A stretch of DNA of 64,000 bases from Ferrovibrio sp. (GCF_964218355.1 NZ_CAXPMC010000008.1:44726-108725); one strand, 5' to 3'; shown: positions 11,829-28,687, counted from the stretch's first letter. Notes: generated from the sequence alone by a model not told the origin. Numbers and translations: made by a program.

Positions 11829-12644
<816 letters not shown>

Positions 12645-12647
12645 ACC

Positions 12648-13274
12648 ATGCCGCAGCCGATGAACTACCTGCGCGAAACCGCTTCGCAGACTGCCGGCCC
12701 CTATGTGCATATCGGCCTGGCGCCGCACCAGGCCGGCTTCGACATCTTCCAGCAGAATTTCAGCAACCAGCTGGCCGGACCGCTGACCCGGGGCGAGCGC
12801 ATCGCCATCGAGGGCCGGGTGATCGACGGCACCGGCACCCCGCTGAACGATGCGCTGCTGGAAATCTGGCAGGCCAATGCCGCCGGCCGCTACAGCCACC
12901 CGGCCGACAGCCAGGACAAGCCGCTCGATGCGGATTTCCGCGGCTGGGGCCGCACCGGTGCCGATTTCGATACCGGCATCTACCGGTTCGACACCATCAA
13001 GCCCGGTCCGGTGCCCGGCCGCCATGGCCGCATGATGGCGCCGCATGTCAATTTCTGGATCGTCGCGCGCGGCATCAATATCGGCCTCAGCACGCGGATG
13101 TATTTCGCCGACGAGGAAGCCGCCAATGCCGCCGATCCGGTGCTGAACCTGATCGAGCAGAAACAGCGCCGCAAGACGCTGATCGCCGCACGCGGCAGCC
13201 ACGACGGCAAGACGGTCTACACCTTCGATATCGTCCTGCAGGGCGAGAACGAAACGGTGTTCCTCGATATCTGA
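12648..13274 (+). CDS. pcaG: Protocatechuate 3,4-dioxygenase alpha subunit
   Basis: ETASQTAGPYVHIGL, WQANAAG, ARGINIGLSTRMYF and YTFDIVLQGENETVFLDI. Confidence 0.96.
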   Translation: MPQPMNYLRETASQTAGPYVHIGLAPHQAGFDIFQQNFSNQLAGPLTRGERIAIEGRVIDGTGTPLNDALLEIWQANAAGRYSHPADSQDKPLDADFRGWGRTGADFDTGIYRFDTIKPGPVPGRHGRMMAPHVNFWIVARGINIGLSTRMYFADEEAANAADPVLNLIEQKQRRKTLIAARGSHDGKTVYTFDIVLQGENETVFLDI

Positions 13275-18113: not shown

Positions 18114-18923
18114 ATGACCGCCATAACCCTGCCGCAGGTCAAATCCATCCGCGCACTCGCCCGCGGCCTCGATGTGCTGAAGGCCCTGCAGGACCGTCCC
18201 GCCACCAGCCTGCAGGACCTGCATGGCGACACCGGGCTGTCGAAACCGACCCTGCTGCGCATCCTGAAGACACTGGAAGAGGCCGGCATGGTGCATCGCG
18301 CCATCGGCGATGGCCGCTACCGCGTCAGCGCCCGGGTGCGGTTCCTCGGCCGCGATCTCGGCGTCCACGATGCCATTGCCGAACTGGCCGCGCCGGTGCT
18401 CGACCGGCTGTGCCGCCATGTGCTGTGGCCATCCGACATCGCCGTCTACAAGGACGGGGCCATGGAGATCCTCGAAACCAGCCGGCAGCAGACGCCGTTC
18501 CTGGTCAATCGCGCCCGCATGGGCTACCGCGTGCACATGCTGATGAGCGCCATGGGCCGCGCCTATCTCGCCTTCTGCACGGAGGATGAGCGCACCGCGA
18601 TCCTCGGCCGTCTGCAGCGGTCGGACGATCCTTATGACCGCAAGGCCCGCAACCGGCCGGCCGTGCAGACGATGCTCGGCGAGGACCGGGCCCGCGGCTA
18701 TGCGACGCGCGAGCCGGGTTACGGATACTGGGGGACCGACCGCAGCCAGGCCGCGGCGATCGCCGTGCCGGTGCGGCGCGGCAATCGCGTGTTCGCCAGC
18801 ATCAACCTGTGCTGGGTGGCCGGCGCCGTGCCGACCGACGAGATGGTTCGTCTGCATCTGGCCGACCTGCAGCAGGCTGCAGACGAAATCGCCCGTGGCG
18901 TCGCCGACGAAGACGCCGCCTGA
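18114..18923 (+). CDS. IclR-family regulator (MhpR-like)
   Basis: SIRALARGLDVLKAL...TGLSKPTLLRILKTL HTH and SAMGRAYLAF; TAACCT 6 nt before the ATG suggests a leaderless mRNA. Confidence 0.9.
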   Translation: MTAITLPQVKSIRALARGLDVLKALQDRPATSLQDLHGDTGLSKPTLLRILKTLEEAGMVHRAIGDGRYRVSARVRFLGRDLGVHDAIAELAAPVLDRLCRHVLWPSDIAVYKDGAMEILETSRQQTPFLVNRARMGYRVHMLMSAMGRAYLAFCTEDERTAILGRLQRSDDPYDRKARNRPAVQTMLGEDRARGYATREPGYGYWGTDRSQAAAIAVPVRRGNRVFASINLCWVAGAVPTDEMVRLHLADLQQAADEIARGVADEDAA

Positions 18924-18936
18924 CCAGGAGCCCTGC

Positions 18937-19593
18937 ATGCATCTTCTTGTTTCCGGTGGAACCGGACTGATCGGCAGCCTCGCGCTGCGCCACGCCATCG
19001 GGCATGGCGGCATCGACCGGATCACGGCGCTGGGCCGCCGGCCGGCCTCGCTCGACAGCCCGCAACTGAGCCAGATCGCCTGCGATTTCGCCAGTCTCGA
19101 TGCGGTGGCCGACCAGATTCAGCCGGCTGACGCGGCCATCTGCGCGCTGGGCACGACCATGCGGCAGGCCGGCTCGCGGCAGGCCTTCCATGCCGTCGAC
19201 CACGACGCCGTGATCGCCTTTGCAAGGCTGGTAAAAACGAAGGGTGTCCGGCGGTTCGCGATTGTCTCCTCGGTCGGTGCGTCCAGCCGGTCCGGCAGCT
19301 TTTATCTCGCCACCAAGGGCCGTGCGGAAGACCGGCTCGGGACCATCGGTTTCGAACGGCTGGTTATCCTGCAGCCAAGCTTCCTGCTGGGCGACCGCAG
19401 CGAGAAGCGGTTTGGCGAGGGCTACGCCACTGCCCTTGCGCAACTGCTCAGCCCGCTGCTGGCAGGACCGCTGCGCCGTTACCGCCCGATCGAAGCCGAT
19501 CTCGTCGCACGGGCCCTGCTGCGCGCCGTCACCGATGACGGGGCCGCCGCCGGCCGCTTCGACTATGACGGCATCCGCAGGCTGGCGGCATAG
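18937..19593 (+). CDS. NAD(P)-binding oxidoreductase (TIP30/YraR-like)
   Basis: GGTGLIGS Rossmann motif, CALGTTMRQAGS...F.AVDHD, SSVGA and FYLATKG; start at ATG 18937 inside the longer listed ORF. Confidence 0.85.
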   Translation: MHLLVSGGTGLIGSLALRHAIGHGGIDRITALGRRPASLDSPQLSQIACDFASLDAVADQIQPADAAICALGTTMRQAGSRQAFHAVDHDAVIAFARLVKTKGVRRFAIVSSVGASSRSGSFYLATKGRAEDRLGTIGFERLVILQPSFLLGDRSEKRFGEGYATALAQLLSPLLAGPLRRYRPIEADLVARALLRAVTDDGAAAGRFDYDGIRRLAA

Positions 19594-20744
19594 GCCAGCA
19601 GGGCCTCGTCCTGGCCGGCACCCGCCAGCACGGACAGCCCGAGCGGGCAGCCGTCCAGTTCGGCCAGCGGCAGGCTGAGCGCCGGCAGGCCCGCATGACC
19701 CGCCACCGACGTCAGGGCCAGCGCCGCCGCATAAAAGTCGCGCGCAGCGGCATCGCGCAGGAAACGACGCGGTGCAATGCCGGGCGTGGTCGGCAGCAGC
19801 AGCAACGTGCCGGGCGGCAGCATGTCGCGGATACGGCCGGCAGCCGTCTGCCGCCAGTGACGCCAGCGCAACACGTCATCCGTTGTCACACTGAGGGCAT
19901 CGGCAAAGCGCGGCGCAATGGTCTCGCCGAAGACCGGCCGCCGCTGCCGGATCCAGTCGCCCAGCGCCGTCGCGATCTCCGCGCCCTGCAGCACGCGATA
20001 GGCCTCGCGGAAATCGGCCGCCGCTCCCCCGTAGATATCGGCATCTTCCGCCGCGCCGAGCCCTTCGGCAGCTCCGCGCAGAACGAGGGCGGCGGCAGGA
20101 TCTACCAGCGCGAAGGCGTCCCGCGCCAGCAGAAGGCGGCGGGGCGCGGCAGCCGTGCCGGCATCCTCCAGCAGGCAGCGGCCTGCCTTTTCCAGCAGCG
20201 CGCCGTCACGCGCGAACAGGCCGACCGTGTCGTAACTCGGTGCGAAGGGGATGACGCCATCGAGCGGCACCCGGCCATGGCTCGGGCGGAAGCCGAAGAT
20301 GCCGCAGAAGCCGGCCGGCACACGCACCGAACCGCCGGTATCGGTGCCGAGCGCCAGGTCGGCCAGGCCGGCAGCAACCGCCACCGCCGATCCGCTCGAT
20401 GAACCGCCCGGGAGGCGGCCGGGGGCGCGCGGATTGACCGGCGTGCCGGTATGGACATTCTCGCCTTCCAGGCTGAAGGCCAGTTCGTCGGTCACCGTCT
20501 TGCCCGCCAGCGCCGCGCCGGCTTCCAGCAGGCGCTGCACAGCCGGCGCCGAATCCGCGGCCGGATGCTGCCCGCTGCGCCAGTCGGGATTGCCGCCGCC
20601 GGTGATCTCGCCGGCCACGTCGATCAGATCCTTTACCGCGAAGGCCAGGCCATCGAGCGGCCCGGATGCCAGCGGGGCAAGCCGGCAGCGATGGCCGGGA
20701 ACGAAGGCACCGAAATCATCCGGCGCCGCGGCCATGGCGGTCAC
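19563..20744 (-). CDS. Amidase-signature family amidase (~393 aa)
   Basis: [17 protein letters not shown] and [12 protein letters not shown] (Ser-cisSer-Lys triad); GTG start 20744 overlaps the upstream TGA (GTGA coupling). Confidence 0.9.
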
Positions 20745-21403
20745 GTCAGGGCTTGGACGATGGTGTCGGTCGGCGCCGTCCAGCCGACAATCCCGCCCTG
20801 CGCCCGGATCATTGCCAGCGTCGCCGCCTTGAATTCCGGGAAGTAGCTCTCGGTCGCATCCTCGGCAAGGATACATTCATAGCCGCGGTCATTGGCCTCG
20901 CGCATCGTGGTCTGCACGCAGACCTCGGTGGTCACGCCGGCAAAAACCAGGTGGCCGATCCCCTGCCGAAGCAGCAGGTCGCCGAGCGGCGTGGCGTAGA
21001 AGGCACCCTTGCCCGGTTTCACGATCACCGTTTCCCCCGGCAGGGCCGCCAGTTCCGGCACGAAATCGTTGCCCGGCTCGCCATCCACCAGGATGCGCCC
21101 CATCGGACCGGCATCGCCGATGGCCAGCGCCCCGCCGCCGCGTGCGCGTTTGGCCGGCGGACAATCCGAAAGATCCGGTTTGTGCCCCTCCCGGGTATGG
21201 ATCACCGGCAGGCCGGCGGCGCGGAAACCGTCGATCAGCCGGCGTACCGTCGGCACGATGGCGGCCAGCGGTCGCACATCGTTGCCCAGTACCGAACCGA
21301 AGCCGCCTTCCTCGATGAAGTCGCGCTGCATGTCGATCACGACCAGGGCGAGCCGGCCGGCCGGAAAGCTGTAGTCGTAAGGCTGGGCGGCAATCACGGG
21401 CAT
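20741..21403 (-). CDS. trtA: Triuret hydrolase (isochorismatase-like cysteine hydrolase)
   Basis: Catalytic D24-K129-C162 plus F35, L39, N41, E160, Y187 and I205, the residues recalled as distinguishing TrtA from BiuH, at identical numbering. Confidence 0.85.
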
Positions 21404-21412
21404 GGCAGCACC

Positions 21413-22333
21413 TCACTTGCCGCGCTGGAATGGCAGGGTCAGCGCCGTCGGCGGCTCCAGCCGGCCGACGATGCCGGCCACCGCCAGCAGAGCCAGCAGA
21501 TAGGGCAGCATCAGCAGGAAGGCCGTGGGCACGTTGATGCCCATGGCCGGCAACTGGAACTGCAGGGCGGTGGCCGCCCCGAACAGCAGGCAGGCGCCGA
21601 TGGTGCGGCCGATATTCCAGCCGCCGAAGATCACTGCCGCCAGAGCGAGATATCCGGCGCCGTTGGTCATGTTCTCGGTGAAGGTGTTGATATCGGCCAC
21701 CGACAGGAAAGAACCTGCCAGCCCCGCCATGGCGCCGGTGATCAGCACCGCCTGCCAGCGCGTGCGGGCAACCGCGATACCGGCCTTGTCGGCCGCACGC
21801 GGCTCATCGCCCACCGCCCGCACCGCCAGCCCGAAGGATGTGTATTTCAGCATCGCCCAGAGGCCGGCCACGATCGCCAGCCCGACATAGACGAAGACCG
21901 ACTGCTGCAGGAAGGCCGTGCCGATGAAAGGCAGGTCGCTGATGCCCGGAATGTCGAGCTTCGCCAGCCCCGGAATCTCCTCGCGCGACAGGCCTCCGAA
22001 GATGATCCGGTACAGCAGCGTGGTGGCGCCGAGCGCGAGGATGTTGAAGCCGATCCCCACCACCAGCTGGTTGGCACGCAGGTTGACGCTGAGCAGGGCC
22101 TGCAGGGCTGCAACAGCCACCGCCGCCAGCACCGCGCAGAGAATGCCGAGCACCGGCTGGCCGGTTCCCCAGGAACCGAGCGCGCCGAAGAAGGCTGCGG
22201 TCAGCATCATGCCTTCGAGGCTGAGATTGAGCACGCCGGAGCGTTCCGAAACCAGCTCGCCGCTGGCCGCGAGGATCAGCGGCATCGACAGGCGCAGGGT
22301 GGAGGCAATGAAGATCGCCAGTGTCTCTTCCAT
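21413..22333 (-). CDS. ABC transporter permease (nucleoside/BMP type)
   Basis: ERSGVLNLSLEGMML, GLAVRAVGDEPRAADKAGI and GAGYLALAAVIFGGW. Confidence 0.92.
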   Translation of the reverse strand: MEETLAIFIASTLRLSMPLILAASGELVSERSGVLNLSLEGMMLTAAFFGALGSWGTGQPVLGILCAVLAAVAVAALQALLSVNLRANQLVVGIGFNILALGATTLLYRIIFGGLSREEIPGLAKLDIPGISDLPFIGTAFLQQSVFVYVGLAIVAGLWAMLKYTSFGLAVRAVGDEPRAADKAGIAVARTRWQAVLITGAMAGLAGSFLSVADINTFTENMTNGAGYLALAAVIFGGWNIGRTIGACLLFGAATALQFQLPAMGINVPTAFLLMLPYLLALLAVAGIVGRLEPPTALTLPFQRGK

Positions 22334-23415
22334 CAGCGTGCCCCCTTTTCCAGCTTCTCGACCAGGATCACCGAACCGGCCACGGCGATGACGATCAGGC
22401 CCTGGATCACCAGGGTCAGCGCCGCCGGCACGCCGGCCATGATTTCCATGGAAATGCCGCCCGAACGCAGAAAGCCGAAGAACAGCGCACCGGCCAGCAC
22501 GCCGGTAGCCGAGCCCCGCGACAGCAGGCCGACCACGAGGCCATCAAAGCCATAGCCCGAAGAGAAGCCGGTCTTCAGATAATACTGTTCGCCCTGCAGC
22601 ATGATGGTGCCGGCGAGACCGCCGAAAGCACCGGCCATCGCCAGCGCACCGACCAGCAGAATACCGCCCGGCATGCCGGCGCGGCGCGCCGCCAGTTCGT
22701 TGAGGCCGATGGCGCGCAGCCGCAGCCCGAAGGTCGAGCGCTGCAGCACGATGGCGGTAGCCACCGCCAGCAGAATGCAGATCACCAGGCCGATATGCAG
22801 CGGCGATTCCGCATCGCCGGTCAGGCCGGGCAGCCGGGTCGGCACCGGAATCTGCAGCGATTCCGGCAGCGTCGCCGAGGAGGTCTGCGGCTGGCGCAGC
22901 AGCGCCGTCGACTGCACCGACCAGTAGACCATCAGCAAGGCAACAAAGCCCAGCAGCAGGGTGCTGATCACCTCGTTGGTGCCGAATCGCACCTTGAGGA
23001 TGCCGGCAATGGCGCCCCAGACAGCACCGGCAACAGTGCCGGCCAGCATCGGCAGCAGCATCGCCAGGCCGAGCGGCAGGCCGTCGACATGGCCATAGAG
23101 CGCGACCGCGGTGGCGGCGATGCCGCCCACCGCGATCTGCCCCTCCCCCCCGACATTGGTGAGATTGGCGCGGAACGCGAAGATGAAACCGAGCCCGACC
23201 AGCGACAGCGCCACCGCCCGGTTCACCGAAGCGCCGAAGGCGAAGGCCGAGCCGAAGGCGCCATCCAGGAATGCCTCGATGGCATCGGGCACCGAGCGCC
23301 CGCTGATCGCGATCAGCAGCAGGCTGACCAGCAGCGAAGCGGCCACCGCCGCCAGCGGAATGGCAATCCGCGCAAGTCGCCGCCAGTCCGGCAGGGAGGC
23401 CGCCAGCGCCGTCAC
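22333..23415 (-). CDS. ABC transporter permease (nucleoside/BMP type)
   Basis: NVGGEGQIAVG, GTNEVISTLLL, FGLRLRAIGLN and GYGFDGLVVGLL. Confidence 0.92.
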   Translation of the reverse strand: MTALAASLPDWRRLARIAIPLAAVAASLLVSLLLIAISGRSVPDAIEAFLDGAFGSAFAFGASVNRAVALSLVGLGFIFAFRANLTNVGGEGQIAVGGIAATAVALYGHVDGLPLGLAMLLPMLAGTVAGAVWGAIAGILKVRFGTNEVISTLLLGFVALLMVYWSVQSTALLRQPQTSSATLPESLQIPVPTRLPGLTGDAESPLHIGLVICILLAVATAIVLQRSTFGLRLRAIGLNELAARRAGMPGGILLVGALAMAGAFGGLAGTIMLQGEQYYLKTGFSSGYGFDGLVVGLLSRGSATGVLAGALFFGFLRSGGISMEIMAGVPAALTLVIQGLIVIAVAGSVILVEKLEKGAR

Positions 23416-24995
23416 AGGCCATGCCCCGACATCAGGGCGCCGATGGCGGCGCGTTCGCCGGGCTCAGCCGGCCGTTCTCCGACCAGCCGGCCGCGATACA
23501 GCACGACGATGCGGTCGGCCACCGCGATCAGTTCATCCAGTTCGCTGGAGATCAGCAGCACGCCGACACCGCGCCGGGCGGCCGCCCGGATCTGCCGGTA
23601 GACCGCCTCGACGGCATTGATGTCGAGGCCGCGGGTCGGCTGCGCCGCCACCAGGGCGACCAGCGGATCGAGCGTGAGTTCGCGGGCCAGCACGGCCTTC
23701 TGCTGGTTGCCGCCGGACAGGCCTGAGAAGGCGACATCGGCACCAGCGGCGCGCACGTCGAATTCCTGCATCAGGCCGCGTGCCGCCTGGTTCAGCGCAT
23801 TGCGGCGCAGCAGGCCGAAGCGGGTGAAACGGTCCAGCTTGTTGAGATACATGTTCTCGGCCACCGACATCGCCGTGACGCAGGCGACAGCGTGGCGATC
23901 CTCCGGCACGATGCCTCCGCCCGCCGCCGTCACCGCCGCCGGGCCGGCCTCGGTCAGCTCGGTTTCGCCGATGAAAAACCGGCCGGCCGCCGGCCGCTGC
24001 AGGCCGGCCAGCACCATGCCGAGCTCGCTCTGGCCGTTGCCTTCGACACCGGCGAGCCCGACGATCTCGCCGGCGCGAATCTCCAGGGTGAAATTGTCGA
24101 GCCGGACGGCATCATGGCGATCCTTCACGGTGATGCCGTCGCAGACCAGGGCGCGCGGGCGCGGAGCATCGCCGGCAGAAACCGGCGGCGCAGATGCCGC
24201 GCCGGATTCGGACAGCGCCACATCCAGCGACTTCACCTCGCGGCCGACCATGGCGCGGACCAGCGCACCCATATCGGCGGTCGCCATTTCCGCCTTCGCC
24301 ACCACGCGGCCGCCGCGCAGCACGGCGACACGATCGGCCACTTTCGCGATCTCGGCCAGCTTGTGGGTGACAAGGATCACCGCGCGACCGCTGTCGGCGA
24401 CGCGGCGGCAGATATCGAGCAGCGAACCGATCTCGTCGGGCGGCAGCACGGCAGTCGGCTCGTCGAGCACCAGCAGCCGCGGCTCGCGCATCAGGCATTT
24501 GACGATCTCGGCGCGCTGGCGCTCGCCGACCGACAGCTCGCCGACCACCGCCTCGGGGTCGAGGCTGAAGCCGAAACTTTCGGCGATGCTGCGGATCTTT
24601 GCCGCAAAAGCCCGGTGCTGCAGCAGGCCGCGGCTCTGGCCCAGCATCAGGTTCTCGACCACGGTCATGCGTGGCACCAGACTGAAATGCTGGTGCACCA
24701 TGGCAATGCCGCTGTCGAGCGCCTCGGCCGGGCCGGCCGGCACCCATTCACGGCCGGCGAAGCGCATCAGCCCGTCATCGGGCCGGTATACGCCGAAGAT
24801 CAGGTTGCACAGGGTCGACTTGCCGGCACCGTTCTCGCCCAGCAGGCATTGCACCTCGCCGACCCGGAAATCGAGCGAGACATCCTGCAGGGCCTGCAGG
24901 CTGCCGAAGCGCTTGCCGAGATTCTCCAGCGCCAGCAGCGGCCGCGTCTGCGACGCGACCGCCTCCGCCGGCAGCTGGCTGGCAACCTGGTGCAC
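23412..24995 (-). CDS. ABC transporter ATP-binding protein (tandem NBD, sugar/nucleoside type)
   Basis: GENGAGKST, LSVGERQ, LDEPT, GVEGNGQSEL, LSGGNQQK and QPTRGLD. Confidence 0.95.
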   Translation of the reverse strand: MHQVASQLPAEAVASQTRPLLALENLGKRFGSLQALQDVSLDFRVGEVQCLLGENGAGKSTLCNLIFGVYRPDDGLMRFAGREWVPAGPAEALDSGIAMVHQHFSLVPRMTVVENLMLGQSRGLLQHRAFAAKIRSIAESFGFSLDPEAVVGELSVGERQRAEIVKCLMREPRLLVLDEPTAVLPPDEIGSLLDICRRVADSGRAVILVTHKLAEIAKVADRVAVLRGGRVVAKAEMATADMGALVRAMVGREVKSLDVALSESGAASAPPVSAGDAPRPRALVCDGITVKDRHDAVRLDNFTLEIRAGEIVGLAGVEGNGQSELGMVLAGLQRPAAGRFFIGETELTEAGPAAVTAAGGGIVPEDRHAVACVTAMSVAENMYLNKLDRFTRFGLLRRNALNQAARGLMQEFDVRAAGADVAFSGLSGGNQQKAVLARELTLDPLVALVAAQPTRGLDINAVEAVYRQIRAAARRGVGVLLISSELDELIAVADRIVVLYRGRLVGERPAEPGERAAIGALMSGHGL

Positions 24996-25007
24996 GGGGC
25001 GCCCGGA

Positions 25008-26000
25008 TCAGGCGTCGAGCACCTTGATCTTGCCCGACAGCAGGTCCTTCTTGATCTCCTCCAGCTTGGCCTTCATCGCCGGCGTGGCGCCGGTGCAGAT
25101 CACCATGTCGGAGGATTTCGGCCCCATGGCGAGGCCGAAGGGCTTGAATTCCGGCTTCCAGCTGCCGGCTGCCGCCTGCTCGATGGCATATTCGACCTGG
25201 AAACCGACGCCGGTGATGGAATAGGCGATATAGAGCGGGTCGGTGCCGCAGCGATCGGTGTAGCTGCCGATGATGTGGGTGCCCTTCTCGCGTGCCGCCT
25301 GCTCCATGCCGCGCAGACCGAGATTGAGGATGTGGTAGTGGATATCGGCGCCCTGGGCGATGGCGGCCAGCGTGGCTTCCTTCGACTTGGCGACGTCGTC
25401 GAAATCGCCGGTGTAGTTCTCGAAATACTTGATGCCCGGGTTGATGTAGCGGGCGCCGTTGCCGAATTCCTTGCCGGTATTGACGATGGCCGGGATTTCC
25501 AGGCCGCCGACGTAAGACACCGCGCCGGTCTTCGACAGCATCGCGGCGGCCGCGCCGGCGACGAAGCCGATCTCGGCCTGGCGCACGTCATAGCCCGACA
25601 CGTTGGCCGGCTTCGCCGCATCGGCATTGCCGCCGACGATGGCGAATTTCACCTTCGGGAAACGCGGCGCCACCTTGAAGACCGAGGCCTGGGTCTGGCC
25701 GCCGACGCCGATCACCAGCTCGTGCTTGCCGGCCAGCGCGACCAGCACCTGCTCCATGTCGCCGAACTTGACATTCTCGATGTATTTGACGGCGATCTTG
25801 CTGCCGAGCTTCTTCTCGGCGGCCTTCAGGCCGTCATAGCCGGATTCCATCCAGCCCTTGTCGGATTTCGAACCCGGGATCAGCACGCCGACCGTCAGCG
25901 GACCGGCCGCCCGCGCCGGCGCGGCCTGGCCGCCCAGCATCACAAGGCCGGCGGCGCCGGCCGTACCCATCAGAAATCCACGGCGATCGATCTGCATCAT
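25008..26000 (-). CDS. BMP-family ABC substrate-binding protein with twin-arginine signal
   Basis: IDRRGFL Tat motif; PGSKSDKGW, GFVAGAAAAMLSKTG and GDFDDVAKSKE...IAQGAD typical of BMP/PnrA proteins. Confidence 0.9.
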   Translation of the reverse strand: MMQIDRRGFLMGTAGAAGLVMLGGQAAPARAAGPLTVGVLIPGSKSDKGWMESGYDGLKAAEKKLGSKIAVKYIENVKFGDMEQVLVALAGKHELVIGVGGQTQASVFKVAPRFPKVKFAIVGGNADAAKPANVSGYDVRQAEIGFVAGAAAAMLSKTGAVSYVGGLEIPAIVNTGKEFGNGARYINPGIKYFENYTGDFDDVAKSKEATLAAIAQGADIHYHILNLGLRGMEQAAREKGTHIIGSYTDRCGTDPLYIAYSITGVGFQVEYAIEQAAAGSWKPEFKPFGLAMGPKSSDMVICTGATPAMKAKLEEIKKDLLSGKIKVLDA

Positions 26001-26046
26001 TGTCCTGCTCCCCGTCTGGCGGATCGTTTATGTCCGCGGAAGGAAC

Positions 26047-26062
26047 AGCAATCGCCGTGCCA
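26047..26062 (-). promoter_or_regulatory. Sigma54 (-24/-12) promoter of the ABC-trtA-amidase operon
   Basis: Minus strand TGGCACG-GCGA-TTGCT matches the sigma54 consensus, 46 bp upstream of the BMP start. Confidence 0.85.
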
Positions 26063-26147
26063 GCCTGTCATGCCCGGCCAACCCTCTGGAATCCCTCCGG
26101 CATCCGGGCAACGGCCGGGCCGGTGGAGGAATTCTCCCTGCACAGAT

Positions 26148-26184
26148 TGCATACAACTGGTCTTGGCTGCCTGTTTTATGGGCT
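26148..26184. promoter_or_regulatory. Two NtrC-like enhancer sites between the divergent sigma54 promoters
   Basis: TGCATACAACTGGTCTT (26148-26164) and TGCCTGTTTTATGGGCT (26168-26184) are partial matches to TGCACCA-N3-TGGTGCA. Confidence 0.45.
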
Positions 26185-26224
26185 GCCGGGCAGTCCGCAA
26201 CCGGCGGAACCAAGGGCTTAGCCA

Positions 26225-26240
26225 TGGCAGGAAACTTGCT
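26225..26240 (+). promoter_or_regulatory. Sigma54 (-24/-12) promoter of the divergent cysteine hydrolase
   Basis: TGGCAGGAAACTTGCT has exact GG-N10-GC spacing, 32 bp upstream of ATG 26273. Confidence 0.75.
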
Positions 26241-26272
26241 ACATGCGGGCAGCAACCCGCGATGAGGACGCC

Positions 26273-27073
26273 ATGAGCAAAACCGGGAAAAAGACCGCCA
26301 AAGCCGCACTGACGCCGCTGGGTTCACCGCAGGCCGGTTTCGCCTGGGGGGCCAGCGCCGGCCATATCGACATGGCCACGCCGCCGGCGAAGCCGAAACC
26401 GCTGACCATCGCCGCGGCACCGCAGACGGTGACCATCGACCTGAAACGCAGCGCCCTCATCGTCATCGACATGCAGAACGACTTCTGCACCAAGGGCGGC
26501 TGGGTCGACCATATCGGCGGCGACTACCGGCCCGACCGCAAGCCGATCAGGCCGCTGCAGAAGCTGCTGCCGGCTCTGCGCAAGGCCGGCATGCCGGTGA
26601 TCTGGGTGAACTGGGGCAACCGGCCCGACCTTGCCAACATGCCGCCGAACCAGATCCATCTCTACAAGCCATCCGGCAAAGGCACGGGCCTCGGCGATCC
26701 GCTGCCGGGCAGCGGCGCGCCGGTTCTGCAGAAGGACAGCTGGGCCGCCGCCGTGGTCGACGAGCTGGAACAGAAGCCGCAGGACATCAAGGTGGACAAA
26801 TACCGCATCAGCGGATTCTGGGACACGCCGCTTGACAGCATCCTGCGCAATCTCGGCATCCGCACCGTGCTGTTCACCGGCGTGAATACCGACCAGTGCG
26901 TTCTGCACAGCCTGACCGATGCCAATTTCCTCGGCTATGGCTGCGTGCTGGTGGAAGACTGCTGCGCCACCAGCTCGCCGGATTTCTGCACCGAGGCGAC
27001 GGTCTGGAACGTCAAGAAATGCTTCGGCTTCGTCACGGACTCCGGAAAGATCCTCAAGGCGCTGAAAGCCTGA
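26273..27073 (+). CDS. Isochorismatase-family cysteine hydrolase, substrate unknown
   Basis: VIDMQNDF, DKYRISGFW and GVNTDQCV (Asp-Lys-Cys triad); SD GAGGA; lacks the BiuH/TrtA KPGKG and MREANDRG motifs. Confidence 0.88.
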   Translation: MSKTGKKTAKAALTPLGSPQAGFAWGASAGHIDMATPPAKPKPLTIAAAPQTVTIDLKRSALIVIDMQNDFCTKGGWVDHIGGDYRPDRKPIRPLQKLLPALRKAGMPVIWVNWGNRPDLANMPPNQIHLYKPSGKGTGLGDPLPGSGAPVLQKDSWAAAVVDELEQKPQDIKVDKYRISGFWDTPLDSILRNLGIRTVLFTGVNTDQCVLHSLTDANFLGYGCVLVEDCCATSSPDFCTEATVWNVKKCFGFVTDSGKILKALKA

Positions 27074-27076
27074 CGC

Positions 27077-27835
27077 CTATTCGGCTGCCGCCACCGCGCC
27101 GGGGAAGACCTGGTCGACGAAACGCGGATAGGTCTCGGCCAGCTCGGCGGCAATCTGCGTGCGCAGCAGCTGCAGGGTCGCGGCATCCGGTGCTTCGGTC
27201 TGCGGCACGCTGGCCGGGCAGTCGAAATCGAAACCGGTATGGTCGCGCACTTCCTCGACGCTGTGCCCCGGATGCACACTGGCCAGCCGGAAACGCAGCG
27301 TCGCGCGGTCGAAGGTGAACCAGCACAGGCTGGTCAGCAGACCGAGTGGTCCGCCGGGGCGATGCGTGCCGTCGTTGCGCGGCCCGGCGGCCGATACGAA
27401 ATCCACCTGCGGCACCAGCACGCGGCGCGAATGCTCCTCGCGGAACAGGATCACGCGCGGCACCAGATAATAGAGATAGCCGGAACCGAACGAACCCGGC
27501 CAGCGCACATTGGTCTGCGGATACTCGCCGCCGGCACCGACCAGGTTGATATTGGCGTGGCCGTCGATCTGGCCGCCGCCCAGGAAGAAGGCCTCCAGGC
27601 GCCCCTGCCCGGCCAGGTCGAACAGCTCGACGCCGCCATCGCAGAGAAAGTCGTTGCGGATGCTGCCCAGCACGTTGACGCGCATCCGTCCGCCGGACTG
27701 TGCCCGCGCCAGCAGCGCACCGGCACCCGGGATCGGCGAGGAGGCACCGGTCGCCACCAGGCGGCAGCCCTGCAGCAGCCGGGCGATCACGGCAATCAGC
27801 AGTTCCTGCCGGCTGAATTCCATCGTGCCGCCCAT
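27077..27835 (-). CDS. Family I CoA-transferase beta-subunit-like protein (GctB/PcaJ-like)
   Basis: FFLGGGQIDGHANIN, RWPGSFGS, QVDFVSAAG, and LASVHPGHSVEEVRDHTGF. Confidence 0.82.
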   Translation of the reverse strand: MGGTMEFSRQELLIAVIARLLQGCRLVATGASSPIPGAGALLARAQSGGRMRVNVLGSIRNDFLCDGGVELFDLAGQGRLEAFFLGGGQIDGHANINLVGAGGEYPQTNVRWPGSFGSGYLYYLVPRVILFREEHSRRVLVPQVDFVSAAGPRNDGTHRPGGPLGLLTSLCWFTFDRATLRFRLASVHPGHSVEEVRDHTGFDFDCPASVPQTEAPDAATLQLLRTQIAAELAETYPRFVDQVFPGAVAAAE

Positions 27836-27838
27836 GAC

Positions 27839-28687
27839 CTACTCCGCCGCCTGCCGGCTGTCCTGCACATGCTCGGTGAGATAGCGGGCGAAACCATCCT
27901 CGCTGCGCGCCGCCTCGCAGTAGAGCCGGATATGCGCCTCGTCATAATCGTAGATGTCCCACAGTTTCAACGGCCAGGCGCCGCGCGGCGCCTCGGCAAT
28001 GCCGCCGATATAGGCGGCGGTCAGCGTGCCGGCCGCCGTTTCTTCCGAAGCCAGCAGGTCGACATCGCGGATTTCCTCGACGGTGACCAGCGATTCCCGG
28101 CTGGCATGGGCCATCGCCACCAGTTCGCGGCGGCGGCCGATGAAGACATTGCCGTTGCGGTCGGCATAGGGCGCATGAAACACCGCGAAATCCGGCCGGA
28201 TCGCCGGCAGCAGCACGATCGGGTCGCCGCCATCGGCAAAGGGATTGTCGATCACCTTCCAGTCGGGCCGGTTCTTCAGCAGGTCAGAGCCGAGCAGGCC
28301 GCGCAGCGGCATGAAGGGCAGGCCCTTGCCCGCGGCCTGGATCGCCGCATGCACGGCCGGGCAGGTTGCATCCAGCATGCGGAAATCGCCGCGTTTCAGT
28401 GCCGCTGCGAAACGATACGCCGTGCCGTATTCCCCGAGCGTGACGGCGGAGGTCTCCAGCGTGCCGACGCAGCCGGCGCCGATCAGCATCTCCGCCTGCA
28501 GTCCCGAGACCGGCACGCAGACCAGATGCAGCCCGTGCGGGCGGCGGCGGATCAGGGCCCGCGTCAGTTCCATCGCCACGCCGGAATAATCCGGCGGCAC
28601 GGCGACCTTGGCCCCATCATGAATCTGTGCTGCCAGCGCGGCGACGGACTGGACGAGGCCCGAGGCCTGCAGTGTCTTGATCGACAT
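27839..28687 (-). CDS. Family I CoA-transferase alpha-subunit-like protein (GctA/PcaI-like)
   Basis: AAGKGLPFMPLRGLLGSDL, PAIRPDFAVFHAPYADRNGN and LVTVEEI. Confidence 0.82.
   Translation of the reverse strand: MSIKTLQASGLVQSVAALAAQIHDGAKVAVPPDYSGVAMELTRALIRRRPHGLHLVCVPVSGLQAEMLIGAGCVGTLETSAVTLGEYGTAYRFAAALKRGDFRMLDATCPAVHAAIQAAGKGLPFMPLRGLLGSDLLKNRPDWKVIDNPFADGGDPIVLLPAIRPDFAVFHAPYADRNGNVFIGRRRELVAMAHASRESLVTVEEIRDVDLLASEETAAGTLTAAYIGGIAEAPRGAWPLKLWDIYDYDEAHIRLYCEAARSEDGFARYLTEHVQDSRQAAE

Follow-up and report, generated by a model that had tools for sequence, protein, structure and literature searches.

We analyzed a 64,000-nucleotide stretch of the genome of a Ferrovibrio species (GCF_964218355.1, NZ_CAXPMC010000008.1:44726-108725; hereafter 'the window', with positions counted from its first nucleotide). 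At positions 19563-27073 it contains a divergon with two sigma54 promoters, encoding an ATP-binding cassette (ABC) importer, a triuret hydrolase (TrtA), a short amidase and a second isochorismatase-like cysteine hydrolase, here termed IHL2. The comparisons described below indicate that the locus is probably a variant of the triuret pathway, in which a genuine trtA and an importer are joined to two uncharacterized hydrolases that would substitute for the biuret and allophanate enzymes. Triuret and biuret are fertilizer impurities and products of urate oxidation; to our knowledge a single lower pathway for triuret has been described, in which BiuH is followed by AtzF. The features of the locus are the following.

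19563-20744, minus strand: short amidase-signature amidase of the PRK08310 family (393 amino acids from a GTG start, 390 from the ATG at 20735)
20741-21403, minus strand: triuret hydrolase TrtA, isochorismatase-like (220 amino acids)
21413-22333, minus strand: ABC permease 1, BPD_transp_2 (306 amino acids; PF02653, 131 bits)
22333-23415, minus strand: ABC permease 2, BPD_transp_2 (360 amino acids; PF02653, 113 bits)
23412-24995, minus strand: fused double ABC ATPase (527 amino acids; PF00005 in two stretches)
25008-26000, minus strand: BMP/PnrA-family periplasmic binding protein (330 amino acids; PF02608, 131 bits)
26047-26062, minus strand: predicted sigma54 -24/-12 promoter of the ABC-trtA-amidase operon, TGGCACGGCGATTGCT (perfect consensus)
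26139-26156, no strand assigned: candidate shared operator or enhancer, TGCACAGATTGCATACAA (contains a genome-rare 10-mer)
26225-26240, plus strand: predicted sigma54 -24/-12 promoter of IHL2, TGGCAGGAAACTTGCT (one consensus mismatch)
26273-27073, plus strand: IHL2, the second isochorismatase-like cysteine hydrolase (266 amino acids; PF00857, 146 bits)

An earlier note on this DNA had described a divergon in which two sigma54 promoters drive a BMP-type ABC importer, a TrtA-signature hydrolase and an amidase on one side and a cysteine hydrolase on the other, and had reported that the window encodes neither a BiuH-signature protein nor an allophanate hydrolase of ~600 amino acids. All of these genes were found; both promoters lie in the 272-bp gap between the operons, are each aimed at their own operon and are conserved, and neither of the two missing proteins was detected in the window. 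The six minus-strand genes form one operon, since the junctions from the binding protein to the amidase are gaps of at most 12 nt or overlaps (12 nt, GTGA, TGATG, 9 nt and GTGA, respectively), the last of which joins the GTG start of the amidase to the stop of trtA. For IHL2, the ATG at 26273 was taken as the start rather than that at 26243, because the latter is only 3 nt past the -12 element.

A scan of the 64-kb window with the sigma54 motif TGGCAC-N5-TTGCW (GG-N10-GC core) returned only two matches with zero or one mismatch: 26047-26062 (minus strand), 46 nt ahead of the binding-protein ATG, and 26225-26240 (plus strand), 32 nt ahead of the IHL2 ATG. Matches with at most two mismatches were not enriched overall (37 found, 33 expected), so the case for these promoters rests on their position and conservation. 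Both are kept in Ferrovibrio xuzhouensis (locus L016), in five Reyranella loci (L018-L021 and L023) and in a Bradyrhizobium-type locus (L096), and the site at 26047-26062 is one of only six perfect sites ahead of an open reading frame in the 4.24-Mb genome. No sigma70-like promoter was found in 19000-27600. We conclude that the two predicted sites are real sigma54-dependent promoters.

The genome encodes one rpoN and six sigma54 activators, comprising NtrC (720 bits), NtrX, FlbD, two of response-regulator type and one of PAS type. The locus had previously been called sigma54/NtrC-type, and the first half of that label holds, with conserved promoters and with rpoN and NtrC both encoded. Neither the window nor the rest of its contig carries a sigma54 activator gene, and the spacer, examined by eye, contains no convincing NtrC site (TGCACC-N5-GGTGCA), only a weak TGCAC...TGCAT resemblance that was not used; for these reasons we infer the second half of the label rather than read it from the DNA, and regard NtrC as a plausible activator of the divergon.

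The candidate shared operator or enhancer, TGCACAGATTGCATACAA, is located midway between the promoters, 77 and 69 bp from their -24 elements. It includes the 10-mer TTGCATACAA, of which the 4.24-Mb genome has two copies, one at the center of the divergon and one on another contig (C16) between atzF and an atzGEH operon. The two copies sit in 18-mers (26139-26156 and C16:221397-221414) that are identical at 15 of 18 positions, both within sigma54 promoter regions of acyl-urea loci. Conservation of TTGCATACAA extends to the divergon of F. xuzhouensis and to the DNA ahead of atzF in Ferrovibrio and two Reyranella genomes. In the Reyranella loci (L018-L023), only 2-4 nt separate the -24 elements of the divergent promoters, which are placed back to back (for example GCAAGTTCCCTGCCAGTTGGCACGCTGATTGC). 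An enhancer would not fit between these promoters, so the activator must have its site at another place or work from solution there.

The hydrolase of the larger operon is ~70% identical to the crystallized Herbaspirillum TrtA (6XIX), with which it shares residue numbering, and scores 305 bits against that structure and 195-207 bits against BiuH structures. It possesses D24, F29, K129, K132, C162 and Q202, among them the isochorismatase-like Asp-Lys-Cys triad (D24/K129/C162), as well as the cis-peptide pair V157-T158. All six of the residues used by Tassoulas et al. (PMC7948467) to separate TrtA from BiuH (F35, N41, A134, E160, Y187 and I205) are present, where the BiuH rows of the alignment show Y, Y, S, D, T and V. 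The protein falls within the TrtA clade of the tree (support 99/93). By score, signature residues and placement it is, as the earlier note had it, a genuine TrtA, with a predicted activity of converting triuret to 1-carboxybiuret.

IHL2 contains a complete triad (D66/K176/C209) behind an N-terminal extension of ~45 amino acids. It scores 157 bits against the RutB model TIGR03614 (cut-off 378), 138 bits against the BiuH model NF050097 (cut-off 370) and only 43 bits, a very weak match, against PncA models. In the tree it belongs to a clade of its own, split from BiuH and TrtA with support of 100/98 and separate also from E. coli RutB and from this genome's own RutB. Assignment as a BiuH was rejected on the curated cut-off, the signature columns and the tree, and assignment as a RutB on the cut-off, the signature columns, the separate clade and the lack of adjoining rut genes. 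The best solved relative of IHL2 is E. coli RutB (ureidoacrylate amidohydrolase, PDB 8BKD; 144 bits). The two share a RutB-like K-x-R motif (K-x-R-x-S-G-F) and nitrogen-type sigma54 control, and differ in that IHL2 has F, W and I at RutB positions Y29, Y35 and Y136, carries the N-terminal extension and has no rut partners. The IHL2 family numbers more than 6000 members, the top 120 of which are at least 75% identical, and public sources label them 'cysteine hydrolase' or 'nicotinamidase-related amidase'. The genome's third isochorismatase-like hydrolase, encoded at C18:62762-63532, shares 70% identity with E. coli RutB and is itself a true RutB. A sigma54-like site, TGGCACGCATCCTGCT, lies ahead of its gene, an arrangement known from the E. 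coli rut operon, which is controlled by NtrC and sigma54.

The amidase (PF01425, 206 bits) has all three residues of the Ser-cisSer-Lys triad (K38/S115/S139) and passes a single, unnamed NCBIfam family, PRK08310 (NF006169; 451.9 bits, cut-off 391); public sources label its members simply 'amidase'. It scores 192 and 182 bits against AtzE models, short of the NF006631 cut-off of 461, and 154 and 168 bits against allophanate hydrolase models with cut-offs of 511 and 487. Its GENxHxG motif is that of AtzE, not that of AtzF. In the Granulibacter allophanate hydrolase studied by Lin and St Maurice in 2013, Tyr299 and Arg307 are said to specify the substrate. Allophanate hydrolase rows read LYxxxxxAER at that site; the amidase family has a 4-residue deletion there and Gln and Ile/Val/Trp at the two columns. 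Among full-length PDB relatives, malonamidase E2 ranks first (127 bits). An arginine equivalent to the carboxylate-binding Arg158 of malonamidase was set aside as uninformative, since it belongs to an ordinary GGSVRVP motif in this amidase. A literature search for the IHL2 clade or PRK08310 amidases in ureide metabolism returned no description of either.

The importer consists of a PF02608 binding protein with a Tat-type RRGFL leader (MMQIDRRGFLMG...), two PF02653 permeases and the fused double ATPase, whose best NCBIfam match is a putative B6 ABC ATPase (431 bits, cut-off 670). These components are only 27-40% identical to the ABC components of canonical trtA-biuH clusters.

A survey of the 80 best TrtA loci in reference genomes revealed the published gene order (BMP, permeases, BiuH, ATPase, TrtA, often followed by an AtzF-like gene) in 72. 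The arrangement in the window, with IHL2 divergent from BMP-ABC-TrtA-amidase, is present in only eight (the closest loci, L016-L023, whose TrtA proteins are 86-94% identical), all from Ferrovibrio, Reyranella and allied metagenome-assembled genomes. A related module that lacks TrtA, in which a BMP-ABC operon is divergent from IHL2-amidase-TetR, occurs on Bradyrhizobium-like and other contigs. Its proteins are close to those in the window (binding protein 70-75%, permease 1 60-64%, IHL2 76-80% and amidase 56-61% identical), and IHL2 and the amidase are translationally coupled in it. This recurrence of importer, IHL2 and amidase without TrtA indicates that the core is an older module to which trtA was added, the graft having been made between permease and amidase in the Ferrovibrio/Reyranella lineage. 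The locus is thus not primarily a triuret locus, and that part of its initial description has to be given up. The module is patchily distributed: of 401 genomes of the class, 12 carry it, and two other species of the same genus lack it.

Elsewhere, IHL2 homologues were found in several further settings. In two related genomes (G108, locus L116:538-10391, and G390, locus L117), an operon runs IHL2-GntR-Opp-type ABC-AtzF-TrtA-like; the TrtA-like protein belongs to a sister clade of TrtA, is 56-58% identical and has all TrtA signature residues, and neither genome encodes a BiuH anywhere. A congener of these two (G272) has a BiuH and TrtA pair, and its IHL2 is just a 49% identical paralogue. At L120:9087-15026 (genome G206), IHL2 stands with a creatininase-family amidohydrolase, an HpxW-like gamma-glutamyltransferase (GGT), AtzE/HpxY-like and AtzH/HpxZ-like proteins and a cupin, an operon that by its predicted gene content is an expanded oxalurate-type cluster containing the IHL2 clade. 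At L100 the homologue adjoins AllF/AllG and carbamate kinase genes, and at L127 an AtzD-like gene, AllG and a BMP ABC importer. As annotated, all of these other contexts are acyl-urea or ureide contexts, and the link to purine and urate oxidation products that the earlier note had suggested is borne out to the extent that IHL2 homologues adjoin genes for urate- and ureide-derived acyl-ureas.

The genome containing the window (100% complete, 4.24 Mb) was profile-searched for biuH and atzF, as the earlier note had recommended. No BiuH above the NF050097 cut-off of 370 bits is encoded anywhere in it, and a canonical atzF is present on C16 (TIGR02713, 761 bits, cut-off 511). The region C16:219517-230390 carries this atzF, a divergent Opp-type ABC operon ending in atzG-atzE-atzH and, on the opposite strand, atzD. 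Each of the products exceeds its cut-off: AtzD (NF052395, 483 versus 360), AtzG (PF13318, 49 versus 24), AtzE (NF006631, 730 versus 461) and AtzH/HpxZ (NF033625, 210 versus 135). In Pseudomonas sp. ADP, ammonia is released from 1-carboxybiuret by AtzEG, AtzH and AtzF, with no BiuH involved (PMC6219798), and 1-carboxybiuret is the product of TrtA. The suggestion that the locus is self-contained cannot be maintained, because the complete atz set on C16 supplies this known BiuH-free route.

Sigma54-like promoters are found at C16:221625, before ABC-atzGEH, and at C16:230624, a site that adjoins atzD and precedes a glyoxalase-family gene and an NMT1-type ABC transporter. The promoter of the atzGEH operon is conserved in four genomes, and its sigma54 type together with the shared TTGCATACAA suggests that the divergon and the C16 atz locus are probably co-regulated. 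AtzE and AtzF are both encoded in all eight relatives that bear the cluster, ~7 kb apart; relatives without TrtA have them too (AtzE in G395 and G119), which makes the association with the cluster unspecific.

We infer from these associations which compounds IHL2, the amidase and the transporter handle, and favor a reading in which the locus is a sigma54-controlled divergon for scavenging acyl-urea nitrogen. The importer would bring in triuret and related acyl-ureas, and TrtA would convert triuret to 1-carboxybiuret with release of one ammonia. IHL2 would then replace the absent BiuH, acting on biuret, 1-carboxybiuret or both, and the short amidase would hydrolyze the resulting N-carboxy-ureide (allophanate and/or 1-carboxybiuret), as AtzF and AtzE do. 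The atzG-E-H and atzF products of C16 would form a parallel, known sink for 1-carboxybiuret and allophanate. We put the chance that this scheme is right at about even.

The evidence in favor includes the identity of TrtA with its signature residues, the conserved gene order of L016-L023, the recurrence of the module without TrtA, the operons of G108 and G390, the acyl-urea and ureide neighbors of IHL2 homologues, the conserved sigma54 promoters and the distribution of IHL2. In an unbiased sample of 401 genomes of the class, matches to the BiuH model that lie only below its cut-off were found in five of the seven genomes with a close IHL2 (at least 60% identical) and in 19 of the 394 others (Fisher's test, odds ratio 49, p=1e-5), although these matches are only partly confirmed as TrtA and two of the five positives are congeners. 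This supports an enrichment of IHL2 in genomes that appear to have a TrtA-type hydrolase and no BiuH, and a displacement of BiuH by IHL2. Of the eight relatives that carry the cluster, five likewise lack BiuH.

Several observations, in addition to those two limits on the Fisher counts, weigh against this scheme. The other three of the eight relatives do have a BiuH. IHL2 is nearer to RutB than to BiuH or TrtA, and has Ile at the TrtA K132 column (BiuH Lys145) and a gap at the Q202 column (BiuH Gln215). Identification of the amidase as AtzF was rejected, since the models score below their cut-offs, the ~150-amino-acid C-terminal domain is missing and the Tyr/Arg pair is not kept; identification as AtzE was rejected on its score (192 bits against a cut-off of 461) and because the locus has no AtzG or AtzH gene. 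The ligand of the binding protein need not be triuret, because that protein is equally conserved in the modules without TrtA, and with a complete 1-carboxybiuret route on C16 nothing forces IHL2 or the amidase onto the products of TrtA. A search of sequencing runs with 19563-27073 matched DNA and metagenome runs only, and no RNA run. The proposal in the earlier note that the two extra amidohydrolases replace the BiuH and AtzF steps is therefore upheld in part: both belong to uncharacterized families and comparative genomics favors IHL2 for such a role, while the amidase fails the tests for an allophanate hydrolase.

The alternative that survives best treats the locus as a mosaic. TrtA would feed AtzEG, AtzH and AtzF on C16, and IHL2, the amidase and the importer would serve another ureide, such as oxalurate or a urate or pyrimidine breakdown product, so that regulation, and perhaps the transporter, would be all that the IHL2 module shares with TrtA. 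We regard this as possible but somewhat doubtful. It is favored by the completeness of atzD/G/E/H/F, each above its curated cut-off, by the presence of AtzE and AtzF in all eight relatives (which loses specificity through the AtzE of G395 and G119), and by an atzGEH operon that is sigma54-driven in four genomes and has TTGCATACAA in common with the divergon. The occurrence of the IHL2 module without TrtA, the HpxW/Y/Z-like and AllF/G neighbors of IHL2 homologues and the RutB-like rather than BiuH-like character of IHL2 point the same way. However, a mosaic leaves unexplained the enrichment of IHL2 in genomes with a TrtA-type hydrolase and no BiuH, the single operon of IHL2, TrtA-like and AtzF genes in G108 and G390, and the translational coupling of the amidase to trtA.

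A further possibility, which we consider rather unlikely, is that IHL2 has a new RutB-like activity that would cleave the carbamoyl group from anionic acyl-ureas and convert 1-carboxybiuret to carbamate and allophanate. The idea is drawn by analogy, because 1-carboxybiuret (H2N-CO-NH-CO-NH-COO-) is isosteric with (Z)-3-ureidoacrylate (H2N-CO-NH-CH=CH-COO-). By the same chemistry IHL2 would turn oxalurate into carbamate and oxamate, and the PRK08310 amidase would finish the released amide. If true, such an activity would give thousands of soil and water bacteria a third, undescribed route for triuret, for cyanurate and for products of urate oxidation, and would account for the TrtA-bearing genomes that have no BiuH.

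It is unlikely that the amidase, rather than IHL2, performs the step after TrtA, as an AtzG-independent analogue of AtzE that would hydrolyze 1-carboxybiuret before its decarboxylation to dead-end biuret, with IHL2 as a separate ureidohydrolase. The GTGA overlap of trtA and the amidase gene does suggest consecutive steps, the AtzE models are the best named NCBIfam matches after the amidase's own family (192 and 182 bits), and the GENxHxG motif is common to AtzE and differs from the AtzF motif. Set against this, 192 bits is far under the AtzE cut-off of 461, no AtzG-like or AtzH-like gene adjoins, the amidase is coupled to IHL2 in modules without TrtA, and a true AtzEG is already encoded in the genome.

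Action of IHL2 and the amidase on a non-ureide amide (nicotinamide-like or arylacetamide), with the TrtA link a regulatory or positional accident, is very improbable: the label 'nicotinamidase-related amidase', the relation of the amidase to malonamidase E2 and its presumed resemblance to plant AMI1-type amidases would fit, but IHL2 is independently co-located with acyl-urea or ureide genes in at least five arrangements, its PncA scores are very weak (43 bits) and both operons are under nitrogen-type sigma54 control.

Besides E. coli RutB and its operon, we compared the divergon with four known systems. The trtA-biuH-atzF clusters of Herbaspirillum (PMC7948467) share several features with it: the TrtA proteins are orthologous and all specificity residues are kept, the operon includes a BMP-type ABC importer, trtA is directly followed by a gene with the amidase signature, and a second isochorismatase-like hydrolase is encoded. 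The window locus differs in that it has neither BiuH nor AtzF, its second hydrolase belongs to a separate, RutB-proximal clade, its amidase is a 393-amino-acid PRK08310-type protein without the AtzF C-terminal domain, and its architecture is that of a sigma54 divergon. All five proteins of the atzDGEHF operon of Pseudomonas sp. ADP (Esquirol et al. 2018, PMC6219798) are encoded on C16, but outside the window, at a separate locus with an Opp-type ABC transporter, and the window amidase is not AtzE.

Clusters of biuH, a 'gatA-like' amidase and bmpA-nupABC in ammonia-oxidizing archaea (PMC12625717) resemble the locus in gene content, including the BMP ABC importer; that 2025 study describes a cysteine hydrolase, an uncharacterized amidase in the place of AtzF and the importer, sometimes beside allFGHK. 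The archaeal cysteine hydrolase is BiuH-like, whereas IHL2 belongs to another clade and the window locus has a bona fide TrtA. Finally, IHL2 homologues elsewhere lie inside or beside clusters like the oxalurate/oxamate genes hpxWXYZ of Klebsiella and allFGHK of E. coli (PMC11326118); none of those genes is in the window, and the link is by association of the IHL2 homologues only.

The type of pathway, TrtA itself and sigma54 control of nitrogen scavenging are thus already known. The new element is that TrtA is paired with an amidase family and with a distinct, highly conserved hydrolase clade, both unnamed, and that there is evidence for the occurrence of this clade where BiuH is absent. The cysteine-hydrolase clade and the short amidase family form a large, conserved and unnamed pair with its own ABC importer, repeatedly located beside acyl-urea and ureide genes. 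Should IHL2 and the amidase turn out to act on biuret, 1-carboxybiuret or oxalurate, a function could be assigned to thousands of proteins now annotated as 'cysteine hydrolase' or 'amidase', and estimates of which microbes mineralize triuret- and biuret-type nitrogen compounds would shift as well.

Of the genes flanking the divergon, a convergent NAD_binding_10 (NAD(P)-binding) gene at 18886-19593 (plus strand) overlaps the 3' end of the amidase gene by ~31 nt; a terminator scan gave nothing meaningful and no terminator-like structure. On the other side, two CoA-transferase subunit genes (27077-28687, minus strand) are convergent with IHL2. The pair adjoins the cluster in F. xuzhouensis too (84-91% identical) and not in Reyranella, and for that reason is probably outside the module. 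The segment 13338-18923 carries a sulfatase-family gene, a TAXI-type (NMT1_3) binding protein and a fused DctM-type tripartite ATP-independent periplasmic (TRAP) permease, divergent from an IclR regulator, and is immediately preceded by protocatechuate 3,4-dioxygenase genes (11841-13274). The sequencing runs that matched 19563-27073 include marine and estuary metagenomes with near-identical sequence (word share up to 0.99), which suggests a saline or estuarine habitat for the organism, and not fertilized soil.

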